NCBI GenBank assembly: GCA_048941285.1
Contig: JBHLNS010000041.1
Span: 1-29,064 of the forward strand
From: Promethearchaeota archaeon
Lineage (GTDB): Archaea > Asgardarchaeota > Lokiarchaeia > Sigyniarchaeales > SOKP01
Direction of reading: 5' to 3'
Length of the DNA stretch: 29,064 nt
The position numbers and the translations under genes were made by a program. The notes beneath the pieces were generated by a model that made no database searches, was not told the origin of the DNA, and worked only from the letters and a program-made list of their open reading frames with translations. Positions 3,656 to 27,627 of the stretch are shown piece after piece; positions within the stretch are counted from its first letter, which is position 1, and each line of letters opens with the position of its first letter.

Positions 3656-4396
3656 TCAATCTGGAAGTAGTTTAGCATCTGTAATGATTGTATCATTCTT
3701 AAGCAGACACTTATATTTTTTGCCCTCTAAAAAATTCATTATTTCTCCACCAATTTTATTCAATTCAATAAAATTAGAAGGTTCTTCACTATCAAAAATA
3801 ATTAAGGATTGGGCAGTCTCCAATTCTTCCTTGCTCAGCTCATCGGCGACTCTGATGTTAATAGACTTAGCACCTGCTAATCTGGCAATTTTCTTTATTT
3901 CTTCCTCTAAAGAACCAAAAGTAAAATAGTGCCTAATTTTACCCTCAATTTTTTCAATGAGAATTTTCTCTAATGCATCTCTTGAATTTTGGTCATAGAA
4001 AGCAGTTAATTCTTTGGTACTGATATTTTTATACTTTCCCGAAATTAGGTTATCTTTATCATTTATAAATTCTATTAAATTATCATAATACTCTTGATCG
4101 ATCTTCTGAAAATTTTCAATATTTTTAACTAAATCCGTCAATTTAAAGATTAAATCATAATAAAAAGTTAAAGTTGATTTAATCTCGAGTTTATCCTTCA
4201 TTTCTTTTATCTCAGGATAGTATTTCTTTAGAATAATATTGATATTATGGTTAAATTCAGCACATAGCTTAGCGACTTCATTAATATTTTTTACAGATTT
4301 TTTGCTTAGCTCATTTAGTAAAGAATTATCTAAGATCGATAAATTGTCAAATATTTCTTTGATGTTATTATAATATTTTTTCTCTATATAGCTCAT
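3656..4396 (-). CDS. Hypothetical protein (helical N-terminus, small alpha/beta C-terminus)
   Basis: 246-aa ORF, co-oriented with neighbours, no recognised motif. Confidence 0.7.
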   Translation of the reverse strand: MSYIEKKYYNNIKEIFDNLSILDNSLLNELSKKSVKNINEVAKLCAEFNHNINIILKKYYPEIKEMKDKLEIKSTLTFYYDLIFKLTDLVKNIENFQKIDQEYYDNLIEFINDKDNLISGKYKNISTKELTAFYDQNSRDALEKILIEKIEGKIRHYFTFGSLEEEIKKIARLAGAKSINIRVADELSKEELETAQSLIIFDSEEPSNFIELNKIGGEIMNFLEGKKYKCLLKNDTIITDAKLLPD

Positions 4397-4522: not shown

Positions 4523-5737
4523 TTATAATCCTAAGAATATTTTTACTGTGGTCATAACAGCCCCGCTAATTATTGGAACTGTAAAATTATCATTTATCCC
4601 TATAGGTAGTAACTCGATTAACGGAGCTGCGATCCCTCCCGAAATAAGCAATAGTAGATGAATATCTAATGATGTATTTAGAATATATCCTAGAATAATA
4701 ACAGCCCCAATATAGGCTAAAGTCCCTTCAAGTGTTTTTTCAAATATCTTGTGACGCCCATATGCTAATCCAAATATTTTTGCAAACATGTCTCCAAAGA
4801 CAAGAAAAGATAAAGCAGTTATTGCAATCTCAATCTGAAACTGTGTAAAAAAAAGCACTGTTAAAAATGTAGACATAAGAAAAAGAGTCATTGTCGAAAA
4901 TCTTTTCTCCTCACCTTTTCTAAAAATTGCTTTAATTTTTTCTGTTAACAATACATTTGTTCGTTTGTGAAGAAATCGAAAGATATCCAGCGAAATAAAA
5001 CATAGACACACAATTCCTATAACATAAAGACCAAGTTGAACGTCAATTAAAACAAATATTAGAAATAATAACGATACTGGTCTTATTGCTACTCTCCACC
5101 AGCTTGAAATGAAAGTTTTATCTGTAATTACTAGCTTTTTTTCTGTGATTACTTTGTACATCCCAACAGCAGCTATATGAATAAGAAGCAATACAAAAAA
5201 TAGATTAAATCCACTTGTAGGGTAGATTATAAATACAGAGTATCCAAGTAAAGGAAATAAGATCATCGGTAAAAGGGTTCCCGCTTTAGATATATATGTA
5301 AATATAATAACAAGCACTAGCAATAATAACAAAATGTAAAACAATTCAAAACTAATGTTAAGGTAAGTCACTAGATAAAAAAGAAGTAATCCAGTGGCAG
5401 TGGCTTGCCCTTGACCTCCTCGAAATTTTAAATAAAATGGAAAAACGTGCCCCACTATAGCCATTAATCCACTAATCTGCCAAAAGATAAGATTTGCACC
5501 TAAGCTAAATGCAACTAACATCGCCAATAAACCCTTCAACGTGTCATATAAAGCTGTAAGAATGGCATATGGAAGCCCTAAGACCTTAAATGCATTTGTA
5601 GTTCCTGGGTTTTTTGTTCCTTCCTCTCTTACATCTATTCCTTTCAATTTTCCAAAAAGAAATGCCGGTAATATAGCGCCTAATAGGTAACCAATAATTA
5701 TACTCAAAATACTTAGAAATAACTCAATTAAATCCAT
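4523..5737 (-). CDS. plsY: PlsY-like glycerol-3-phosphate acyltransferase fused to a CTP-dependent lipid kinase-like domain (DGK1/VTE5/SEC59 type)
   Basis: N-half: GYLLGAILPA, DVREEGTKNPGTTNA, DTLKG, GHVFPFYLKFRGGQG. C-half: FGDMFAKIFGLAYGRHK...KTLEGT and IELLPIGINDNFTVP. Many TM helices. Confidence 0.85.
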   Translation of the reverse strand: MDLIELFLSILSIIIGYLLGAILPAFLFGKLKGIDVREEGTKNPGTTNAFKVLGLPYAILTALYDTLKGLLAMLVAFSLGANLIFWQISGLMAIVGHVFPFYLKFRGGQGQATATGLLLFYLVTYLNISFELFYILLLLLVLVIIFTYISKAGTLLPMILFPLLGYSVFIIYPTSGFNLFFVLLLIHIAAVGMYKVITEKKLVITDKTFISSWWRVAIRPVSLLFLIFVLIDVQLGLYVIGIVCLCFISLDIFRFLHKRTNVLLTEKIKAIFRKGEEKRFSTMTLFLMSTFLTVLFFTQFQIEIAITALSFLVFGDMFAKIFGLAYGRHKIFEKTLEGTLAYIGAVIILGYILNTSLDIHLLLLISGGIAAPLIELLPIGINDNFTVPIISGAVMTTVKIFLGL

Positions 5738-7776: not shown

Positions 7777-9507
7777 TTAATGGTAGAGATACATAAACCT
7801 CTCCATGTAATACAAGAAAATTTGATTATAATAACCTGTGAAATATATATCGGAAGCATGGCCACCAAAGGGCATCCATAATATAGCACAGTTTTTATTG
7901 GCATTAGCACTATATGTTTTTCGAATATTTTCAGCTATACTAAAGTAGTTGATTATGTCATGAGTACCTTGAAATATAAGGCATGGGGGGCTATCGCTTT
8001 CAATAAGTTTTTCTGGATTTTTAAACTCATCACTTCCACTAATTCCAAAAAAATTCATGAGATCATTTGCTGGATAGAAAGGAATCAATCCTTTTATAGT
8101 CATATTAGCACTGAATATATCCGTATAATTTCCACTCGCAATAGCTAATGCAGCAGCACATGTTAGATGACCTCCGGCTGATCCCCCACTAATGAAAACA
8201 GAATCTAAATTTGCTCCATAAATTTCCGCATTATTAGTAATATAATTCGTAAAAGCCCCTATATGGCGCATCATATCATCAATGTTAAAATTTCCTTTAT
8301 TATAATCCGGAGTTAAAGGATCCAAAGCATATAAAAGATTTTCATCAATCCCATATTGAATATCAAACACCCTATATCCTTGAGCAGCAAAATATTTGTT
8401 CATCTGCAACATGTTCATCAAACCTTTATCACCCGAAACCCAAGCTCCTCCATGGATTCTTATAATTGTAGAATTAAATCCAGGAAGCTTTTCATTATTA
8501 AATAGAGGCAAATAAGCATCAAAATATAATTTTATTCCTTCAGCATCATAGAACAGAATATTTTGTTCAATTCTACAATCTTTAGGAGGATTTCCTAAAA
8601 AATAGCTTGTTAAAGAGAAAGGGGTTTCTAAAAAATAATTATTGACTTCGAGAGGTATTTTTTCTCTCCAATCTGAACCAAATGTACTTGAAAAATTACG
8701 TTCAATATTATTTGTTGTATACTGAGTTAAAGCTAATGGCGCCAATAACAATCCAGATACTAAGAACCCACCTAAAGCCGTTCTATAAAATTTCCTAGAA
8801 TTCCACCTATTATGTTTCAACTTTAAAAGAAGAATTGTATTTGCAAAAAATATTAATGAAAAGAAAAGACCAAATTGACCCGAGACTATTGCTATAAATG
8901 TTGTCACTATCTCAAAGGATCCAAATAAAGTGACAATTCCAAAGATAATTCCTATGATAAAAGTACCCCTTGAAATAATAGTAATAACTTTTTTAGATAT
9001 TTTTTTAGTCCTGATAAATCTCAGAGAAAATTCTTTTTCGTAAGGTTTGGTTTCACTCCTTAATTTTACTATTTTATAAGTTTTAATTCCAATAAGAGCA
9101 TAAATAATTCCTATTATCAATGTCCCAAAATAGAAGAAAGTAATTAAAAAATAGGCTAACAAATTATCAACTATTTTATTTGAATAAGTTACAGAAATCA
9201 GTAAATTGCCTAAAATCATACAGACTATCGCAAGAATAATAAAGATTAAATAGAGATAACTAAAAGAGTTCATTTTACAGCAGAATTTATATCTTCCATC
9301 TTCCTTGTTAGAGTTAATAAAGATAAGAATAAGATTTCCAAAAAATGTCATTAATAGAAGAATTCCAAAGACATCCCATAATATTAAATAAGAAGGATTT
9401 AATAAATAAAAGAGTCCCAAAATAATACAAACTGTATTTAAAATAACTGAAGAGAAACAGGCGATTCTAATAGATGGAATTTTCAACCAATTCTTTGCGA
9501 TCTTCAT
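7777..9507 (-). CDS. Membrane-anchored alpha/beta hydrolase (HSL-like esterase/lipase) with multi-TM N-terminus
   Basis: About 7 hydrophobic helices, then IHGGAW (oxyanion hole), GGSAGGH (GxSxG), GTHD (acid) and GGH (His). Confidence 0.9.
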   Translation of the reverse strand: MKIAKNWLKIPSIRIACFSSVILNTVCIILGLFYLLNPSYLILWDVFGILLLMTFFGNLILIFINSNKEDGRYKFCCKMNSFSYLYLIFIILAIVCMILGNLLISVTYSNKIVDNLLAYFLITFFYFGTLIIGIIYALIGIKTYKIVKLRSETKPYEKEFSLRFIRTKKISKKVITIISRGTFIIGIIFGIVTLFGSFEIVTTFIAIVSGQFGLFFSLIFFANTILLLKLKHNRWNSRKFYRTALGGFLVSGLLLAPLALTQYTTNNIERNFSSTFGSDWREKIPLEVNNYFLETPFSLTSYFLGNPPKDCRIEQNILFYDAEGIKLYFDAYLPLFNNEKLPGFNSTIIRIHGGAWVSGDKGLMNMLQMNKYFAAQGYRVFDIQYGIDENLLYALDPLTPDYNKGNFNIDDMMRHIGAFTNYITNNAEIYGANLDSVFISGGSAGGHLTCAAALAIASGNYTDIFSANMTIKGLIPFYPANDLMNFFGISGSDEFKNPEKLIESDSPPCLIFQGTHDIINYFSIAENIRKTYSANANKNCAILWMPFGGHASDIYFTGYYNQIFLYYMERFMYLYH

Positions 9508-12814: not shown

Positions 12815-12969
12815 TACTTTTATATCGAAGCTTAATTATAATTTGGTTAAGGACTAAAGATATATTTTATTCTTACTAAAATAAATAAAAATTTTGTGAT
12901 TCAAAATTTTAATAAGAATAAACTTGTATTTTGCAATTAAAAACATTTAATTTAATTGTCGTGAATTAT

Positions 12970-13359
12970 TTGGCAAAAATTATAAGAGATTTATGGATAT
13001 TAACTGAAAGTGGACTGACATTATTTAGTCGAGTGATTGATCCAAAAATGGGACCACAAGTTTTTGGAGGATTAATGATTGCATTAAATACATATGCAGA
13101 AAGTCTTACAGAAGGAGGAATTTCAAATTTTGAATTAAGTAGTATTCGATTTACAATAGTAAAGAATAATAATTTCCTTTTTGTTGCAAGCTCACCTAAC
13201 GATATCAAGACTAAAAAGGTTTTGAATGAACTGAAAAAAATATCTCAGAAATTTTTTGAAGTATATCCGGAAAATATCTTAAATAATTTTAGCTCCAATA
13301 TACGTGTCTTTAGCGAATTTAAGAACCATATAACAGATTCGTTAGAAGAAATTGATTAA
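12970..13359 (+). CDS. Stand-alone longin-like domain protein
   Basis: LWILTESGLTLFSR...QVFGGLMIALNTYAESL...FTIVKNNNFLFVASS...LKKISQKFFEVY fits the bbabbbaa longin pattern of Lokiarchaeal proteins. Start moved to TTG at 12970 after a GTGA RBS-like site (ORF track gives 12931). Confidence 0.78.
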   Translation: MAKIIRDLWILTESGLTLFSRVIDPKMGPQVFGGLMIALNTYAESLTEGGISNFELSSIRFTIVKNNNFLFVASSPNDIKTKKVLNELKKISQKFFEVYPENILNNFSSNIRVFSEFKNHITDSLEEID

Positions 13360-13930: not shown

Positions 13931-15400
13931 GTGATTTATGATGTTATTATTATTGGAGGCGGTGTTACTGGTTGTTGCATCGCTCGTACTCTTTCAAAAT
14001 ATGATCTCAAAGTATGTTTATTAGAAAAGGAAGCAGAAATTGCTGCTGGAACCACCAAAGCTAATTCAGGTGTGATACACGCAGGTTATGCTTCTTCTAG
14101 GGAATATATTAAGCGATATTTATGCATTAAAGGAAACAAATTATACACTCAAGCAGCAACGGAATTAAATTTCCCTTTCAAACGAATTGGTTCCTTTGTA
14201 GTTGCCTTAGAGGATAATCAGATTAAACAGCTAGAAGAAGAAAGAAAAAGAGGAATTGAAGATGGTATTCCCGGGTTGCAAGTCATATTAGATAAAAAGG
14301 AAATTATGCAAATGGAACCAAATTTAACTGATGATGTCGTTGGAGTGTTGCATGCTCCAACAGCTGGACTTGCTAGCCCATATGAATTAACTTTCGCATT
14401 AGCTGAGAATGCGGTAATGAATGGTGTAAAATTTTTCAGAAATCATGAGTGTGTTAAAATTAAGCATCAAGATTATATTTTCACAGTTAGAACATATAAG
14501 GGTGAATTTCAGGGACGGAATGTAATCAATGCTGCTGGATTGTATGCTGGAAAAATTTCGAATATGCTAGGTTTAGATTATTTTAATATAATGCCAAGAA
14601 AAGGAGAATATATTCTTTTTGATCGTAATGCTCTTCAATTAAACAAAATATTATTTCCTATGGCAACAAAAGTATCAAAAGGAATATTGGTTTGTCCAAC
14701 ATTACATGGGAATACTTTTGTTGGACCCAATGCTCAAAACTTAACTGATTTTGAGGATATTTCAACTACAACTGCCGGATTAAAAGAAATTTTAGAAGGT
14801 GGAATGAAATTAGTTCCAAATCTCCCCGTTAGAAGTTCAATTAGAAATTTTGCTGGATTAAGAGCAGTTCCAGATTCTTATGACTTTATTATTGATAACA
14901 CTGACGTTTATGGATTTATCAATGTTGCTGGTATCTTATCACCTGGTTTGACAGCGACATTTGCCATAGCGGAAAAAGTAATTGAATTTCTTGAACTATT
15001 AGGTGTTGAATTAAAAGAAAAGGAAGATTATAATCCTTTACGACCTAAACCCGAAAGATTTAAGGATTTTAGCAAAAAAGAACTTGACAAAAAGATTAAG
15101 GAAGACCCTAGTTGGGGTAGAATCATATGTCGTTGTGAAACCATTCCAGAAAAAGAAATAATTGATGCTATCCATGCTCCAGTAGGAGCTAACACAATAG
15201 ATGGTGTAAAATTTAGATGCAGACCTGGTATGGGTAGATGCCAAGGCGGATTCTGCAGACCTCGGGTGATAGAAATCTTATCAAGAGAATTAAATAAAGA
15301 TTATAAGGAAATTACTAAGAAAGGAGAAGATACGAATATTTTAATAGGAAAAACTAAAGATTTTTTCTTAAAAGGTAAAAATGGAGGCGTTAGTGAATGA
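13931..15400 (+). CDS. glpA: FAD-dependent oxidoreductase, GlpA/L2HGDH-like, with C-terminal BFD-like [2Fe-2S] domain (probable glycerol-3-phosphate dehydrogenase catalytic subunit)
   Basis: DVIIIGGGVTG, TTKANSGVIHAG, INAAGLYA, PRKGEY, FAGLR, SPGLT; CRCE...GMGRCQGGFC. GTG start. Confidence 0.85.
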   Translation: MIYDVIIIGGGVTGCCIARTLSKYDLKVCLLEKEAEIAAGTTKANSGVIHAGYASSREYIKRYLCIKGNKLYTQAATELNFPFKRIGSFVVALEDNQIKQLEEERKRGIEDGIPGLQVILDKKEIMQMEPNLTDDVVGVLHAPTAGLASPYELTFALAENAVMNGVKFFRNHECVKIKHQDYIFTVRTYKGEFQGRNVINAAGLYAGKISNMLGLDYFNIMPRKGEYILFDRNALQLNKILFPMATKVSKGILVCPTLHGNTFVGPNAQNLTDFEDISTTTAGLKEILEGGMKLVPNLPVRSSIRNFAGLRAVPDSYDFIIDNTDVYGFINVAGILSPGLTATFAIAEKVIEFLELLGVELKEKEDYNPLRPKPERFKDFSKKELDKKIKEDPSWGRIICRCETIPEKEIIDAIHAPVGANTIDGVKFRCRPGMGRCQGGFCRPRVIEILSRELNKDYKEITKKGEDTNILIGKTKDFFLKGKNGGVSE

Positions 15401-16695
15401 AGAGATACCAAGTTGATGTTGCTGTTATCGGTGGGGGATCTGCAGGGTTAGCTGCTGCGATAGTTGTTAAAAAAGCTGAATTAAATGTTTTAATATTAGA
15501 AAGGGATCGTGAATTAGGTGGAATCACTCTTCAATGTATACATAATGGATTTGGATTACATGAGTTTAAAGAGGAATTAACGGGACCTGAATATGTTCAA
15601 CGGTTTATTAATCAAGTGAAAGAACTAAATATCCCTTATAAGTTAGATACAATGGTAATCGAACTTACTCCTGATAAAACTATTTATGCAGTGAATAACA
15701 AAGAGGGATTAATTGAAATAAAGGCTAAAGCAATTATCCTAGCGATGGGGTGCCGAGAAAGAACTAGGGGTGCAATTAACATTCCTGGGTTTAGACCTGC
15801 AGGAATATATACTGCAGGGCAAGCCCAAAGGTTTGTAAACATGGAGGGTTATTTACCAGGAAGGACATTTGTCATATTAGGTAGTGGTGATATTGGTATG
15901 ATTATGGCGCGAAGATTAACTTGGGAGGGGTGTCAAGTGAAAGCTGTGGTGGAAATTCAACCTTACGTAAGTGGTTTATTAAGAAATGAAGTCCAGTGTT
16001 TAGAAGATTATGGAATTCCTTTAATCACTAGTTATACTGTAACAAAAATCCATGGAAAAGATAGAATTCAAGGTGTTACAATTTCGAAAGTAGACCGTAA
16101 TTTTGATAGAGTTATTGGCTCAGACAAATTTATTGAATGTGACACACTTTTGTTATCAGTTGGTTTAATTCCTGAAAATGAGTTAACTAGAGAAGCAGGA
16201 GCAGAAATCTCCCATATGGGCGGTCCTGTGGTTGATAATAATTTAGAAACCACAATTAATGGTATATTTGCATGCGGTAATGTTTTACAGGTCCACGATT
16301 TAGTTGATCTAGTTTCAGCGGAGGGAAAGCGGGCAGGATTAAGTGCCATTCAATTCATTAAAGAAAGATATGGCAAAAAAATTGAAAAAAGAGACCAAAT
16401 TGTCTGTAAACCTGGTGAAAACATCAATTATATAAAACCAGATCTGATTAATCGAGCTGATTTATCAAAAGATGTTATTTTTACATTTAGAGTTAAACGA
16501 CCTGATAGACGACTTTTAATTCAAATTAAAGATGAAAAAAATAAGATTATTTATAAAAGAAAAAGACTATATGTTATCCCTAGTGAAATGATTGAAATAA
16601 AATTAAATCTAAGTGAAGAACAATTAGATCCTGAATGTGAAGCCCTGGAAATTGAAGTGATTCCTAGACCCGAGGTTTTAATTGAGGAGGATTGA
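15397..16695 (+). CDS. NAD(P)/FAD-dependent pyridine nucleotide-disulfide oxidoreductase (GlpA-like operon subunit)
   Basis: IGGGSAGLAAA, LQCIHNGFGLH, ELTGPEY, AMGCRER, ILGSGDIG, FACGNVLQVHDLVD; ATGA overlap with the previous gene. Confidence 0.9.
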   Translation: MKRYQVDVAVIGGGSAGLAAAIVVKKAELNVLILERDRELGGITLQCIHNGFGLHEFKEELTGPEYVQRFINQVKELNIPYKLDTMVIELTPDKTIYAVNNKEGLIEIKAKAIILAMGCRERTRGAINIPGFRPAGIYTAGQAQRFVNMEGYLPGRTFVILGSGDIGMIMARRLTWEGCQVKAVVEIQPYVSGLLRNEVQCLEDYGIPLITSYTVTKIHGKDRIQGVTISKVDRNFDRVIGSDKFIECDTLLLSVGLIPENELTREAGAEISHMGGPVVDNNLETTINGIFACGNVLQVHDLVDLVSAEGKRAGLSAIQFIKERYGKKIEKRDQIVCKPGENINYIKPDLINRADLSKDVIFTFRVKRPDRRLLIQIKDEKNKIIYKRKRLYVIPSEMIEIKLNLSEEQLDPECEALEIEVIPRPEVLIEED

Positions 16696-16716
16696 TCAAT
16701 AAAAAGGTGATTAGAA

Positions 16717-17112
16717 TTGTCAACAAAAACTAATGAAGTAAATTTACCTGACGGATCTAAAGACATAAGATGCATTATTTGCCCTACTGGATGTTTAGTT
16801 CATGTTGAAAATGTGAACGGAGAATTAATAATAGAAGGACATTCTTGTAAGAGAGGGGAAGAATATGCAAGAGAAGAATTCGTTTCTCCGAAAAGAATTC
16901 TTACCACCACCATGCAAGTGGAAAACGGATTTTTACCTTTAGTACCTGTGAGATCAGAATTGCCGCTTCCAAAAGATAGATTGGAAGAAACACTTCAAGA
17001 AATTGCGAAAGTAAAAATTAAAGCTCCTATAAAAATGGGGGATATTCTTATAAAAGATATTCTTGGGCTCAATATCAATATTATTGCAAGCAGGGATTTA
17101 ATTGAAGGATGA
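16717..17112 (+). CDS. DUF1667 family small Cys-motif protein (third gene of GlpA-like operon)
   Basis: CIICPTGC...GHSCKRGEEYA..E...PKRILTTT...PIKMGD; TTG start with AGGTGA RBS upstream. Confidence 0.9.
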   Translation: MSTKTNEVNLPDGSKDIRCIICPTGCLVHVENVNGELIIEGHSCKRGEEYAREEFVSPKRILTTTMQVENGFLPLVPVRSELPLPKDRLEETLQEIAKVKIKAPIKMGDILIKDILGLNINIIASRDLIEG

Positions 17113-19036: not shown

Positions 19037-19609
19037 ATGTCAGAAGTAATAGTTATTATTCAAATCGTATTCATTACTTTAGGAATGATTGCCCTAGGAA
19101 TGATTCTTAATCGTTTTTTGGGATTATCAAAAGAAGTAATACAAGATATGAGAAAAAAGGCTCTAAATCTCCGAGAACGGATGAAAAATGCGCAATTTAT
19201 TGGGGATTATCAACAATTAGCACAAATTCAGCGGGAATCCACCCAATTTATGAAGATAATGATGAGAAAACAGATGATTCCGTTATGTTTGAGATGTATT
19301 ATTTTTATCGGGATTTTTATGGTTTTAGGCCTTATTTATGCTGATTATGAAAGTGGTTTGCTACCATTTCCCATTCTAATTTTTGGTAGTGGATGGGTTG
19401 CTATTTACTTAATCTTTTCACTATACTTTTCTTTATTTATTTGGGGAATCAAAAGACTTACGGGAATGGGTGGAAAGACGCAAAGTTCGTTGAAAGAAAT
19501 CATGGGGTTAGTATCCCCTCAACAACAAACAGGACTCTCTTCATATGCGGCTTCAAATATAACGGATATTCCTAGAAAGGATTCATGGAAAGATCGCATT
19601 GAAGAATAG
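19037..19609 (+). CDS. EMC3/TMCO1/DUF106-like (Oxa1 superfamily) membrane insertase
   Basis: TM1, then a helical hairpin with M/Q-rich end (LAQIQRESTQFMKIMMRKQMIP), TM2, a LPFP loop, and GWVAIYLIFS TM3. Confidence 0.8.
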   Translation: MSEVIVIIQIVFITLGMIALGMILNRFLGLSKEVIQDMRKKALNLRERMKNAQFIGDYQQLAQIQRESTQFMKIMMRKQMIPLCLRCIIFIGIFMVLGLIYADYESGLLPFPILIFGSGWVAIYLIFSLYFSLFIWGIKRLTGMGGKTQSSLKEIMGLVSPQQQTGLSSYAASNITDIPRKDSWKDRIEE

Positions 19610-21659: not shown

Positions 21660-22670
21660 TTATTTTTCGCGCCACTCAACTCCACATTGGCCGCATTTAT
21701 ACTTTTTTCCATATACTCTTGGATAATCAAGAATAATATTAGATTTATCAACGCTCTCATGAATCATGTGAGGGTCATCGGTTCTGCATTCTGGGCAACT
21801 CCTTCTTGTTCCATCCATTTTCTCAACAGTTCTAATAGAAGTATCTGTTCTACCAGGTATTCCTGGTGCAGCCCCGGAAGCCTTCACCTCAGAAATCTCT
21901 GCTTGTATTTGTTCTGGAGAAACGTCTCTAACTTCTGATTTAAATTCTGGTTTAATGGCTCCTGCAATTCTATCATCTTCATCTTCTCCTTCTAATACTG
22001 ATTCTGCTTTTAATTGCACCGCATCAGATTCTTTATAATCTACTCCTCTTTCTAACGCTGCCTTAAATTCTGCATCATCCCCTTCTTCAAAGATAAATTC
22101 TTTTTGCAAACCAGCTCTATCAGCATCTATTGCGCGTGCCCACTGACCAGCTTTTACACGTTCAGTCACAGTACAAGCATTTCCTTGCCAAATATAGACT
22201 TTGTTACCTAAATCAGCAACATAACAATCTTCGGATTCTAATGATTCCTGTTTGTACGGTACTTGAATCATTTTCATCGCATTAATATCTTCGAATTCTT
22301 CCGACGAGACTCTATAAAGGACGTTTTTCCATTCTGTAAATCCCGCCCAATCACCTGTTGTTACATCTTTAAGCAGTGTTTTAGCAATATTTTTTTCAAC
22401 AATTTTCATTGCTCCCATTATACTAATCGTTTTCATAAATTCTTTTGATTCTTGGCCCTGATCTACCGTAATAATTTTAGCAGCACCACCACGTTGTTGG
22501 TCAAGCGTTCTTGCTTGAGCTGCACCTGCAGTCTTTTCATCTACTGAACACTTATTACCTATCCAGACATAAATAGTCTTTTCATCGTCTAAAAGGTAAA
22601 CATCCCCGCTGGAGAAGATTGGTTTATTGACTTCTTTTAAATTACCTTGTTCAATAATAAAAAGTTTCAT
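21660..22670 (-). CDS. Two-domain gelsolin-like protein with acidic linker and C-terminal zinc ribbon
   Basis: Repeat 1: FSSGDVYLLDDEKTIYVWIG..CSVDEK...VDQGQESKEF. Repeat 2: LESEDCYVADLGNKVYIWQG..CTVTER...FEEGDDAEF. Both are gelsolin-domain signatures. C-terminal CPEC...CGQCG. Confidence 0.92.
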   Translation of the reverse strand: MKLFIIEQGNLKEVNKPIFSSGDVYLLDDEKTIYVWIGNKCSVDEKTAGAAQARTLDQQRGGAAKIITVDQGQESKEFMKTISIMGAMKIVEKNIAKTLLKDVTTGDWAGFTEWKNVLYRVSSEEFEDINAMKMIQVPYKQESLESEDCYVADLGNKVYIWQGNACTVTERVKAGQWARAIDADRAGLQKEFIFEEGDDAEFKAALERGVDYKESDAVQLKAESVLEGEDEDDRIAGAIKPEFKSEVRDVSPEQIQAEISEVKASGAAPGIPGRTDTSIRTVEKMDGTRRSCPECRTDDPHMIHESVDKSNIILDYPRVYGKKYKCGQCGVEWREK

Positions 22671-25575: not shown

Positions 25576-27627
25576 CTAATATCTTTCTAATCCTTGATCT
25601 TCTTCACTTTCAAATAATCCTGAATGAGGCTCAAGAAAATGATTTTGACACATGGGACAAGAATTATATTTTGAAAGCCAAAAAGCAACGCATAAATAAT
25701 GATATGTGCTCCCACAGAAAGGGCATGTTATTACTTTATCTTTGGCAAAATTAATGAATTTATGACAGACAGTGCATTGAACTTCTGAAGCAGAAATTCC
25801 TTTTCTTACTTTAACTCTATTAGATAAGATTGTCTCCAATTTTGCTAATTCTACTTGATATAGTCCCAAGGAATTATTCAATTGATTTACTTTCGACTTT
25901 ATCTCAGAAATTCTTTCCTTTAACTCCTCTTCTGATAATTTTTCTGCTAAGAATGATGATAGTGCAAAATTTAAAGGTAAACCTTCAAAATTTTCTGTTT
26001 GTTCAGTGATTTCAGTAATGGTAGCAAATAGAATTCCTTCTTTTTCAATTAGATCTTTAAAATTTTTAAATATCTTATTGAGAAGCAACGACATGAGAAA
26101 AGTTAATTGCTGTCTTTTTCTATTTAGGCCATCTTCCCAATATTTTATTACTTGATAAATATCTACATCATTTGTCTTAACAGATTCCAATTTCTTATAA
26201 ACCGAATCTTTAATTTTTTGGATTTTATGACTATAATCATTTAATATTTCTCTAATCCTTTTTAATTGAGGAAATTCTTCTTTTAATATGATCGATGCCT
26301 CATCCTCATAAACCCTAATTAAATCATTCACTTCGGAGATTTTATCTGAAATAAACTTTCTTATTTCGACTCTTAGTTCTTCATCCTCAACGGTCTTAAT
26401 AAAACTCAAATATTCATTTTTCCTACGAAAAATTTCAGAAGAAACATTCGAAAATATTTTTCTTAACGAAATTGTAATATTTTCATACGGATTTAAGAAA
26501 TTTTCTATATTTAGTATCCAATCTTCAATCTCATTGATCTTTGCAGAAAAATCTTCAATTTTATTATAATAAAATTGAGCAATTTCTTCAAATTTTTCCG
26601 CTTCAATTACATCATGGATTTTTTCTTGGAAACTTTTTTCCAAACCCATAATGTAGTTGTCAACTATTTTTGGTAAAAAGACACTAATTTTTTGTTCTTT
26701 AAAAGCTCCTAAATTAACACTTTCATCCTTTTCCTTTAAATCAAAATCTTCGATTTCAACAATTATATCATGTAGTTTTTCTCCAATTAATTCTCTAAGC
26801 AATGGACTGATATACTGTTTAAGATTTTTAACAGCTTCCTTCCTTTCAAGGATATTAATAAATTCTTCTCCTTGAAATATCTCAAATACGTTATTTGAAT
26901 ATAACAGATATATTAAATCAGAATAAAACTTGATCTTATTTTCATCTCTCAAGGAGAAGAATTGAAAAATTTCTTCAAAATGAAAGGTTAAAATTCTCTC
27001 TTTTTTATCTTTTTTCCTTTTAATCAGTAGAACATCATTTAAACTTATTATGAAATCGACTAATTCTTTAATGTCTTCCCAATTTTTTATCGAAAGAGGT
27101 ATTTCATTGAGTTTAAAATTTAAATTCTTAATTCTATTAATTTCTGTCCAAATAGTTGTTGAATCCTCAAAAACAGATTTTATCTCTCTAATTGATTGCT
27201 GGATTTCAGAGCCTAGACGAATACTTTCTTTAAGAAGCTCTTCTATATCCATTAAATATTTGTCTAATAGAGATAATTTTTTTGTTATCCGTTTTACGTT
27301 CCTAATATTAGAACTAAGATTTTGTAAATTGTTTGAAATAATTTGTAATTCTGCTAATACTTCACTTTTTAAATAAAAATAATCTGAATTTCTGGTAGAC
27401 AATAAATACCTATCAGAAAAATTTTTTAGATAATTTATATAATTCGAATAATTCTCATAAATTCCCGTAGCAAGATGAAGTTTTGATTTTAAATAATCTT
27501 CTATATTAAAAAACTCAGAGTCTCCAGATTTAGGTTTTGCAACCATTTCCTTGATTTCAAGAATCTCATCTTTAGTGAATCCATGAATATCTCTTAAATC
27601 ATTAAAAGAATTATTGGAAAAATTCAA
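25576..27627 (-). CDS. Long helical/coiled-coil protein with C-terminal C4HC3 RING finger (putative E3 ligase)
   Basis: CTVC-x13-CPFC-x4-HYLC-x3-W-x6-CPMC at aa 618-660; preceding ~600 aa look helical; TTG start. Confidence 0.85.
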   Translation of the reverse strand: MNFSNNSFNDLRDIHGFTKDEILEIKEMVAKPKSGDSEFFNIEDYLKSKLHLATGIYENYSNYINYLKNFSDRYLLSTRNSDYFYLKSEVLAELQIISNNLQNLSSNIRNVKRITKKLSLLDKYLMDIEELLKESIRLGSEIQQSIREIKSVFEDSTTIWTEINRIKNLNFKLNEIPLSIKNWEDIKELVDFIISLNDVLLIKRKKDKKERILTFHFEEIFQFFSLRDENKIKFYSDLIYLLYSNNVFEIFQGEEFINILERKEAVKNLKQYISPLLRELIGEKLHDIIVEIEDFDLKEKDESVNLGAFKEQKISVFLPKIVDNYIMGLEKSFQEKIHDVIEAEKFEEIAQFYYNKIEDFSAKINEIEDWILNIENFLNPYENITISLRKIFSNVSSEIFRRKNEYLSFIKTVEDEELRVEIRKFISDKISEVNDLIRVYEDEASIILKEEFPQLKRIREILNDYSHKIQKIKDSVYKKLESVKTNDVDIYQVIKYWEDGLNRKRQQLTFLMSLLLNKIFKNFKDLIEKEGILFATITEITEQTENFEGLPLNFALSSFLAEKLSEEELKERISEIKSKVNQLNNSLGLYQVELAKLETILSNRVKVRKGISASEVQCTVCHKFINFAKDKVITCPFCGSTYHYLCVAFWLSKYNSCPMCQNHFLEPHSGLFESEEDQGLERY

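Follow-up and report, generated by a model that had tools for sequence, protein, structure and literature searches.

A PlsY-like domain fused to a lipid-kinase-like domain in an Asgard archaeon: a likely accessory paralogue of bacterial affinity

Introduction

The bacterial acyltransferase PlsY and the membrane enzymes that depend on cytidine triphosphate (CTP) are the described systems closest to the protein discussed here. It is encoded at positions 4523..5737, minus strand, of contig JBHLNS010000041.1 of a Promethearchaeota archaeon (assembly GCA_048941285.1); the stretch of 29,064 nucleotides that was analysed is referred to as the window. The open reading frame (ORF; P0001) starts with ATG and encodes 404 amino acids (aa) plus a stop codon. 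A preliminary description, made from the DNA alone, took it for a bacterial-type PlsY fused to a CTP-dependent lipid-kinase-like domain. The reported fusion of a PlsY-like and a lipid-kinase-like domain is confirmed. The protein is probably accessory, a paralogue with affinity to bacterial proteins, rather than a canonical acyltransferase of glycerol-3-phosphate (G3P), and the earlier interpretation as a whole is partly supported.

Closest Described Systems

PlsY (PF02660) has been solved structurally for Aquifex aeolicus (aaPlsY; 5XJ5-5XJ9). According to the accessible parts of the paper, acyl-phosphate is bound by H92, T41 and the loop-3 backbone, while G3P is held by a phosphate clamp of S35, R45, K104 and N180, and additionally by S142 and H177, the latter contacting the 2-OH of G3P (PMC5700162). 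The same parts report that the R45K mutant loses more than 90% of its activity, that S35T retains 17%, and that H177 cannot be replaced by any other residue (PMC5700162). The fusion protein has the same fold as aaPlsY at about 27-30% identity, with motifs 1 and 2 recognisable, and it shares the equivalents of the acyl-phosphate-site residues H92, GGxG and N42. It differs by the changes S35T, R45K and K104Q, by the lack of motif 3 and by the presence of a second, catalytic-looking domain. Moreover, canonical PlsY coexists with the fusion in bacteria, and the fusion scores below the NCBIfam equivalog cut-off for PlsY.

The second half of the protein finds its two best structural matches in CdsA (TmCdsA, 4Q2E/4Q2G; PF01148) and CarS (5GUF; PF01864), both of them intramembrane CTP-dependent cytidylyltransferases. 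A block of the form D-x-x-A-x-x-x-G...K-S/T-x-E-G is common to these enzymes and the C-terminal half (C-half), whereas overall identity amounts to only 15-18% and the root-mean-square deviation (rmsd) to CdsA is 7.5 Å over 179 residues. The chemistry of the C-half probably differs as well, being that of a kinase rather than the transfer of cytidine monophosphate. The other group of relevance consists of the CTP-dependent kinases of prenol, dolichol, phytol and diacylglycerol (SEC59/DOLK, VTE5, FOLK, PfPolK and DGK1), in which a small multi-helix membrane domain uses CTP; the likeness of the C-half to this group consists of the source label 'dolichol kinase' on one relative (see below) and a motif resemblance to PfPolK. 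Yeast DGK1 is reported to depend on D177 and G184, a pair spaced D-x6-G, as are D316 and G323 of the C-half. In PfPolK, a prenol kinase, the accessible text describes a modelled R-K-x-x-H 'charged clamp', which an R-x3-R pair of the C-half resembles (PMC10849223).

Lastly, there are the PlsX/PlsY and FakAB/PlsY routes, which have two steps: a first enzyme supplies the phosphorylated lipid donor, acyl-phosphate, from which a protein of the PlsY fold then transfers the lipid group. The logic proposed below for the fusion is the same. However, PlsX and FakAB are soluble or peripheral proteins of unrelated fold that use acyl-ACP (acyl carrier protein) or ATP, whereas the candidate activator in the fusion is an integral-membrane domain of the CTP type, and the acceptor in the fusion is probably not G3P.

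PlsY homologues in Asgard archaea have been cited as a sign that these archaea, the ones most closely related to eukaryotes, might produce membrane lipids that are chimeric or of bacterial type (PMC6737245; PMC6431249; PMC13400652). In the accessible parts of these papers the Asgard protein is treated as a PlsY homologue without mention of the fusion; the PlsY tree of one of them used 104 alignment positions (PMC6431249). Full-text literature searches yielded no published PlsY-kinase fusion, but supplements and most subscription journals lay outside their scope and an earlier mention is possible.

The Fusion Is a Real and Constrained Protein

An assembly artefact or chimera was rejected as the origin of the fusion ORF, as its architecture is shared by 79 distinct ORFs from Asgard archaea, 17 from bacteria and 56 representatives without taxon. 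The archaeal setting of the gene is backed by its neighbours in the window (TFIIB, ProRS, gelsolin, a longin-like protein and a proteasome subunit), which fit an Asgard archaeon, and from the source names of the closest database relatives. In a collection of 5.8 billion proteins, 547 relatives were found at an E-value (E) of 0.001 or below. The best 120 of these are 327-414 aa long and 60-89% identical; their precomputed annotation consists of PF02660 only, and those that bear a name are labelled PlsY. A full-length AlphaFold2 model built from 63 homologues reached a mean predicted local distance difference test score (pLDDT) of 94.6 and a predicted template-modelling score of 0.89. Across 24 Asgard homologues mean column identity is 72%, and the core residues of both halves are retained in 63 fusions, down to 31% identity. 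Both halves are thus under strong constraint as one protein.

The N-Terminal Half Keeps the Donor Site of PlsY, Not the G3P Site

The N-terminal half (N-half; residues 1-195; 5153..5737, minus strand) is a PlsY-fold domain, as the preliminary description had proposed. The Pfam model PF02660 covers residues 15-186 with E 3.7e-33 and 115.4 bits, against a gathering cut-off of 24.1, and the match spans profile positions 1-149 of 164. By sequence the N-half matches aaPlsY (5xj5) with E 4.3e-17. By fold it matches 5xj6 and 5xj5 in Foldseek with E 3e-5, a probability of 1.0 and template-modelling scores (TM; target-normalised) of 0.63-0.64, corresponding to the seven-helix fold of PlsY; PlsY was also the sole match when the whole fusion model was searched, so that the C-half had to be folded separately. 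The label 'bacterial-type PlsY' nevertheless calls for qualification: family and fold agree with it, but the protein does not reach the cut-off of the NCBIfam equivalog TIGR00023 (100.6 bits versus 137.2).

Alignment to aaPlsY locates the motif-1 loop, E39-G-T-K-N-P-G-T-T-N48, at 5594..5623 (minus strand), where S35, T41 and N42 of aaPlsY correspond to T41, T47 and N48. The R45 equivalent, K51, comes shortly after this loop. Motif 2 with loop 3, G96-H97-VFPFYLKFRGG-Q109-G-QAT, lies at 5399..5452 (minus strand); here H92 corresponds to H97, the GGxG stretch to G107-G108-x-G110 and K104 to Q109. At the G3P clamp, the window protein consequently carries T41, K51 and Q109, and motif 3 is absent.

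To see how general this pattern is, the residues were scored across the 79 Asgard fusions, the 17 bacterial fusions and the 56 representatives without taxon, 152 in total. The H92 equivalent is retained in 79/79, 16/17 and 52/56 of these, respectively. The GGxG glycines and the N42 equivalent are kept almost throughout, N48 being present in 78 of the 79 Asgard fusions. The residues of the G3P clamp behave differently. At the K104 position the Asgard fusions have Q (55), R (12), K (8) or E (4), and 16 of the 17 bacterial fusions have Q; at the R45 position the Asgard fusions have K (32), R (23), H (12) or various other residues. The motif-3 pattern H..N[ILVMF].[RK], which contains H177 and N180, was found in none of the 152 fusions (0/79, 0/17 and 0/56). 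It is present in 5/6 stand-alone PlsYs from fusion-bearing bacterial genomes and in 5/10 stand-alone PlsYs of other Asgard families. Read from these columns, the acyl-phosphate donor site of the PlsY-like half is conserved and its G3P site is not. The earlier view of the protein as a working bacterial G3P acyltransferase that bears on the lipid divide is not supported, given the missing G3P-binding residues. One copy, in a Cytophagia metagenome-assembled genome (MAG; L077:3998-5191), looks degraded: it deviates at several positions that are invariant elsewhere, e.g., with GSQG instead of GGQG and AQ in place of the GH pair, and sits on a long branch in the trees of both domains.

The C-Terminal Half Resembles CTP-Dependent Lipid Enzymes

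The linker and C-half together span residues 196-404 (4526..5152, minus strand) and are described, on the basis of relatives and fold, as a polyprenol- or diacylglycerol-kinase-like domain. Family scans do not recognise it: the C-half alone has no Pfam or NCBIfam match at E<=10, and PF01148 (CTP_transf_1) does not match the fusion protein at E<=10 or its six-frame translation at E<=1. Relatives are nonetheless numerous. A phmmer search of the C-half against 1.84 billion representatives gave 2038 matches at E<=0.001, of which 523 reach E<=1e-10 and 30 even E<=1e-30. When the best 150 of these were scanned with hidden Markov models of both halves, 60 carried both domains and 90 the C-type domain only, many of the latter being stand-alone proteins of about 190-205 aa.

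Among 43 stand-alone relatives, PF01148 matches 15, although weakly (best E 3.3e-5; the score of P0156 is below the cut-off), the CarS model touches only one, and NCBIfam gives scattered chance matches only. One relative, P0141 (36% identity, E 1.4e-13), has been named 'dolichol kinase' by the JGI. When the 43 are combined into a profile, their D-x2-A-x3-G...K-S/T-x-E-G block can be aligned to TmCdsA (4q2e) with E 0.013; the two entries that outscore TmCdsA are designed helical repeat proteins in which no stretch passes on its own. A search of the C-half in the ESM Atlas gave a best score of 0.88, under the 0.9 level, and provides a lead only, namely one cluster with PF01148 on 14% of its members.

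The fold of the C-half was approached with an AlphaFold2 model that included the stand-alone relatives and reached a pLDDT of 91.2. The top Foldseek match is TmCdsA (4q2g), with a probability of 0.94 but an E of 0.2 and a TM of 0.35. In VIA-align, TmCdsA (4q2e_A) ranks first of 48,161 chains (Z 10.7, 179 residues, rmsd 7.5) and CarS (5guf_A) second (Z 7.6, 103 residues, rmsd 3.4), with unrelated chains following from Z 7.0, and a Z under about 13 can reflect a generic arrangement in the case of helical bundles. It is because the only two solved members of the family rank first, and because the sequence motif aligns, that the CdsA/CarS fold is assigned. The sequence and model comparisons together place the C-half in the CTP_transf_1 superfamily, closest to small prokaryotic kinase-like proteins. 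The earlier proposal that this half would model onto the DGK1/CDS fold is thereby sustained by CdsA and CarS at ranks 1 and 2; its description as lipid-kinase-like is supported at the level of the superfamily, which holds both kinases and cytidylyltransferases.

Three sequence elements can be distinguished. The core CTP_transf_1-type motif, G315-D316-MFA-KIF-G323-LAYGRHKIFE-K334-TL-E337-G338 (4724..4795, minus strand), was located by the profile alignment to TmCdsA 4q2e. It contains both the GD-x-x-A-x-x-x-G (315-323) and the K-T-L-E-G (334-338) of the preliminary description; the third motif listed there, with six residues between E and D-N, has to be corrected to E-x7-D-N-x3-P. This C-terminal acidic motif, read from the translation, is E375-LLPIGIN-D383-N384-FTV-P388 (4574..4615, minus strand). 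Finally, column counts point to two conserved basic residues where the C-half begins, in W213-W-R215-V-A-I-R219-P220 (5078..5101, minus strand). R215 is retained in 79/79 Asgard and 17/17 bacterial fusions, R219 in 79/79 and 16/17, and the consensus of the stand-alone relatives at this site is RKxxR/H. By analogy, R215 and R219 are a possible counterpart of the charged clamp of PfPolK, a correspondence we infer from the likeness of the motifs.

Conservation of the C-half was scored over the same 79 Asgard, 17 bacterial and 56 other fusions, together with 5 split-pair proteins (discussed below), 45 stand-alone relatives and 6 paralogues from the host genome. R254, E276, D316, G323, K334, E337, G338, E375, D383 and N384 are near-invariant in fusions, split-pair proteins and stand-alone relatives. 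The six host paralogues share most of the motif residues, including D383 and N384, whereas E375 occurs in only one of them. Since the motif residues match those of the stand-alone relatives, the C-half is probably catalytically competent, with a working active site.

Distribution, Paralogy and Bacterial Origin

The fusion is not peculiar to Asgard archaea. A scan of species-representative genomes gave 68 fusion loci, 60 of them in archaeal MAGs (labelled Promethearchaeota or similar) and eight in bacteria: three in WOR-3, one in Caldithrix, one in Cytophagia and three in genomes labelled 'uncultured bacterium'. The proteins of these eight loci are 36-48% identical to the window protein over nearly its full length. 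Within the phylum of the window, 48 of 201 sampled genomes have some match at E<=1e-10, and full-length fusions are confined, in this sample, to the window's own GTDB family, where 20 of the 40 other genomes carry one. In the other Asgard families sampled, the matching ORFs are either PlsY-like and stand-alone (about 215-250 aa) or kinase-like. Full-length fusions, 33-61% identical to the query, also occur in at least 23 of 101 sampled genomes of the WOR-3 phylum. Two related Asgard genomes contain same-strand arrays of fusion genes, one of four genes within about 7 kb (G176:C6:56192-62993) and one of three within about 4 kb (G088:C106:4910-8811), the copies being 43-55% identical to the window protein.

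All five fusion-bearing bacterial genomes that were examined have a separate PlsY of about 202-219 aa, which scores 150-181 bits against PF02660, compared to 62-123 bits for the fusion; PlsX is also present in each of the five. Trees were computed for 103 PlsY-type domains and for 102 C-type domains, in quick IQ-TREE searches with SH-aLRT (an approximate likelihood-ratio test) as the only support. In the N-domain tree, the 82 fusion N-domains all fall in a single clade (SH-aLRT 99) that excludes the canonical PlsYs of bacteria, the stand-alone PlsYs of Asgard archaea and the split-pair PlsY-like proteins. As the bacterial hosts keep a separate canonical PlsY and PlsX, and the fusion N-domains form a clade of their own, the fusion is regarded as a paralogue.

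Inside this clade, 20 Asgard fusions and four representatives without taxon group together (SH-aLRT 90) and lie in a larger clade (SH-aLRT 97) with the fusions of WOR-3, Caldithrix and Cytophagia. In the C-domain tree the Asgard clade (SH-aLRT 93) is sister to a WOR-3 group and is nested among bacterial fusions; five of the six kinase-like paralogues of the host fall in a distant clade and the sixth among stand-alone proteins. Because the Asgard copies nest inside the bacterial fusions in both trees, both halves appear to have arrived together from bacteria. On this phylogenetic placement, one Asgard family appears to have acquired the protein already fused and after the loss of motif 3.

In bacteria the two families are also linked in another way. 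Five WOR-3 genomes (L112-L116) have adjacent or overlapping genes on the same strand, of which the first is PlsY-like (192-207 aa) and the second kinase-like (190-195 aa). Both members of these split pairs fall outside the fusion clades in the respective trees, and they therefore represent a second association of the PlsY-like and kinase-like families. The PlsY-like member has kept R45 and mostly K104, while H177 and N180 are absent. In addition, a canonical PlsY with a higher score (170-178 bits) is present in each of these genomes. A complex prediction for one split pair scored 0.00 and gives no verdict. The number of PlsY-family loci in a WOR-3 genome varies from two to seven.

The Host Genome

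The host genome (3.55 Mb in 101 contigs, 94% complete) was searched for the lipid genes named in the preliminary description and some others. The fusion gene is the one PF02660 locus. In this 94%-complete genome, PlsX (PF02504) and DegV/FakB (PF02645) have no match. PlsC-type acyltransferases are represented by three domain matches, among them a 558-aa protein with two tandem PlsC-type domains (G000:C82:689-2365, minus strand; L002) that scores 158.2 bits against TIGR00530 (cut-off 102.95). GGGPS is present above its cut-off, whereas G1PDH (NF002022) has no match above the cut-off (best 32.3 bits versus 413), and the three Fe-ADH ORFs scanned look like alcohol dehydrogenases. The GpsA model PF01210 gives weak Rossmann-type matches, the best with 40.6 bits; the same model matches in all 14 control genomes. 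That PlsX was not found fits the idea of a kinase half that supplies the donor.

Besides the fusion, the host has six kinase-like paralogues of the C-half, of 249-384 aa, on contigs C98, C24 (two in tandem), C52, C32 and C1. Each of them carries an N-terminal membrane extension of 35-208 residues. The one at C52:35546-36295 shares its strand with the GGGPS gene, which is about 1.5 kb away.

Proposed Mechanism and Alternative Explanations

A donor site that is kept, a G3P site that has decayed, an apparently competent CTP-type domain, a genomic linkage that recurs and a host with no other source of acyl-phosphate together suggest that the fusion could be an accessory two-domain membrane enzyme of bacterial origin that works by activation and transfer, and not a housekeeping acyl-phosphate:G3P acyltransferase. 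This explanation is preferred, though tentatively. As a lipid kinase that depends on CTP and belongs to the superfamily with the CdsA/CarS fold, the C-half would act at the cytoplasmic face and phosphorylate a membrane lipid. A free fatty acid, converted to acyl-phosphate, would be the likeliest substrate, because the host lacks PlsX and Fak to make that compound; alternatively, the substrate might be a lipid alcohol. The N-half, in which the phosphate hole and the lipid groove are kept, would take the phosphorylated lipid and pass its lipid group on to an acceptor that is not G3P, with release of phosphate. While the data show the two folds, the residue pattern, the distribution and the bacterial affinity, the catalytic coupling of the two halves, both substrates and the acceptor are what we infer here. 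A more far-reaching version, in which the CTP-driven kinase hands its acyl-phosphate or other phosphorylated lipid directly to a rewired PlsY-fold transferase that acylates a non-G3P acceptor, would amount to an undescribed route of lipid activation in WOR-3/FCB-type bacteria and, via gene transfer, in one Asgard family; this is doubtful.

Several points weigh against this explanation. The loss of the G3P clamp is uneven: at the K104 position, 8 of the 79 Asgard fusions have K and 12 have R, at the R45 position 23 have R, and to judge by these residues some copies may still bind a phosphorylated acceptor. To our knowledge, no member of the kinase branch of CTP_transf_1 phosphorylates a carboxylate; by forming acyl-phosphate, the fusion would extend the chemistry of this family. 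The surroundings of the gene offer no help either: no lipid genes recur around the eight bacterial fusion loci, where the neighbours are TonB receptors, SerRS, aldolase and radical SAM proteins and a single PAP2 gene lies several genes off on the opposite strand, and the conserved neighbours at Asgard loci are TFIIB, ProRS and a hypothetical protein without family, which give no clue to a lipid pathway. The bacterial origin depends on Asgard clades with a support of 90-93, below 95, in the quick trees described above, in which 46 (N-half) and 26 (C-half) fusion rows carry no taxon. In one representative, P0275, the order of the fusion domains is reversed; it was rejected as an independent fusion event, since its C-domain nests in the fusion clade as sister to P0251 (SH-aLRT 96), which makes it a rearrangement. 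As to expression, a fraction of 0.10 of the sampled words occurred in one sediment metatranscriptome run.

The main rival explanation is that the protein is a CTP-dependent kinase of the polyprenol or dolichol type, in which the PlsY-fold half is just a structural or lipid-presenting N-domain that carries out no transfer. Dolichol kinases indeed consist of a conserved catalytic C-domain and variable, non-homologous N-domains that raise activity, according to the accessible text of PMC11542857. The N-terminal membrane extensions of the six host paralogues and the decayed G3P site of the PlsY-like half can be read in the same sense. However, H97, GGxG, N48, D35/R37 and D65/K68/G69 are kept in fusions down to 31% identity, which is unexpected for a structural domain, and separate pairs of PlsY-like and kinase-like genes exist. 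As a structural domain is not expected to keep the residues of the phosphate hole, this explanation is ranked below that of activation and transfer and is considered unlikely.

In the sense of the preliminary description, the protein would be a true acyltransferase of G3P, or of glycerol-1-phosphate, and would receive acyl-phosphate from the fused kinase, with fatty acid and CTP as the starting compounds; it would bypass PlsX and yield lysophosphatidic acid for ester or chimeric membrane lipids. The PF02660 match, the PlsY fold and the kept phosphate hole agree with this, as do the lack of PlsX and FakB in the host, the PlsC-type protein above the TIGR00530 cut-off and a cluster resembling G3P oxidase and GlpA 8 kb away. 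In addition, bacterial PlsY accepts both stereoforms of glycerol-phosphate, as stated in the accessible text of PMC13400652. The residues nevertheless make it improbable: motif 3 occurs in none of the 152 fusions, the window protein has K104Q, R45K and S35T, and in aaPlsY the activity losses upon R45K and S35T and the irreplaceable H177 show what such changes cost (PMC5700162). The score below the TIGR00023 cut-off and the complete PlsX/PlsY pair that fusion-bearing bacteria keep argue against it as well.

The order of the two reactions might also be reversed. In that case, the PlsY-like half would acylate an unphosphorylated acceptor, e.g., glycerol or a lipid alcohol, from acyl-phosphate, and the kinase half would then phosphorylate the product with CTP, like DGK1. 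An acceptor without phosphate would fit the lost cationic phosphate clamp, and PlsX can supply acyl-phosphate in the bacterial hosts, but the searches for PlsX and DegV/FakB revealed no recognised source of acyl-phosphate in the Asgard host, and this order is slightly less probable still than G3P acylation. That the C-half would be a cytidylyltransferase making a CDP-activated lipid from a phospholipid bound or made by the PlsY-like half is highly improbable, since, even though CdsA and CarS are the only solved structures it resembles and the superfamily holds both chemistries, its closest relatives in sequence are the small stand-alone proteins (the one JGI-named 'dolichol kinase' and others unlabelled), with PF01148 matches as weak, and CarS matches as rare, as given above.

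Implications for Asgard Lipids

The 'PlsY' gene cited in the lineage of the window is a different protein from the one its name suggests: a fusion without the G3P clamp, in a host without PlsX. As such fusions apparently come from bacteria that keep PlsX and PlsY, arguments on the lipid divide that are built on gene presence should separate them from the canonical-looking stand-alone PlsYs, which account for 5/10 of those examined in other Asgard families. The fusion matters mainly as a correction to such gene-presence arguments on Asgard lipids. Should the explanation by activation and transfer be true, it would additionally represent a new way of making or using phosphorylated lipid donors.

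Neighbouring Genes

Directly downstream of the fusion, on the same strand, lies a gene for a soluble, Lys/Glu-rich hypothetical protein of 246 aa (3656-4396, minus strand) without Pfam or NCBIfam family. No other neighbour of the fusion is as conserved as this one, which is present in 48/69 loci, all of them archaeal. Two genes upstream, at 7777-9507 (minus strand), a 576-aa protein combines a long multi-helix membrane N-part with a C-terminal alpha/beta-hydrolase (BD-FAE / Abhydrolase_3). Homologues of it occur within 4 kb of the fusion in 26/69 loci. This hydrolase could release fatty acids from ester lipids, and its link to the fusion may be one of synteny only.

The cluster 8 kb from the fusion, at 13931-17112 (plus strand), comprises three genes, for a DAO + BFD-[2Fe-2S] protein, a Pyr_redox_2 flavoprotein and a DUF1667 protein. 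The first resembles type 2 glycerol-3-phosphate oxidase and GlpA, below both cut-offs (293.5 versus 460 and 154.1 versus 552.8, respectively), and G3P metabolism near the fusion is therefore possible. The window furthermore contains genes of the eukaryote-signature type, encoding a longin-like protein (a weak match; 12931-13359), an EMC3/TMCO1-like protein (19037-19609), gelsolin repeats (21660-22670) and a RING-finger protein of 683 aa (25576-27627).

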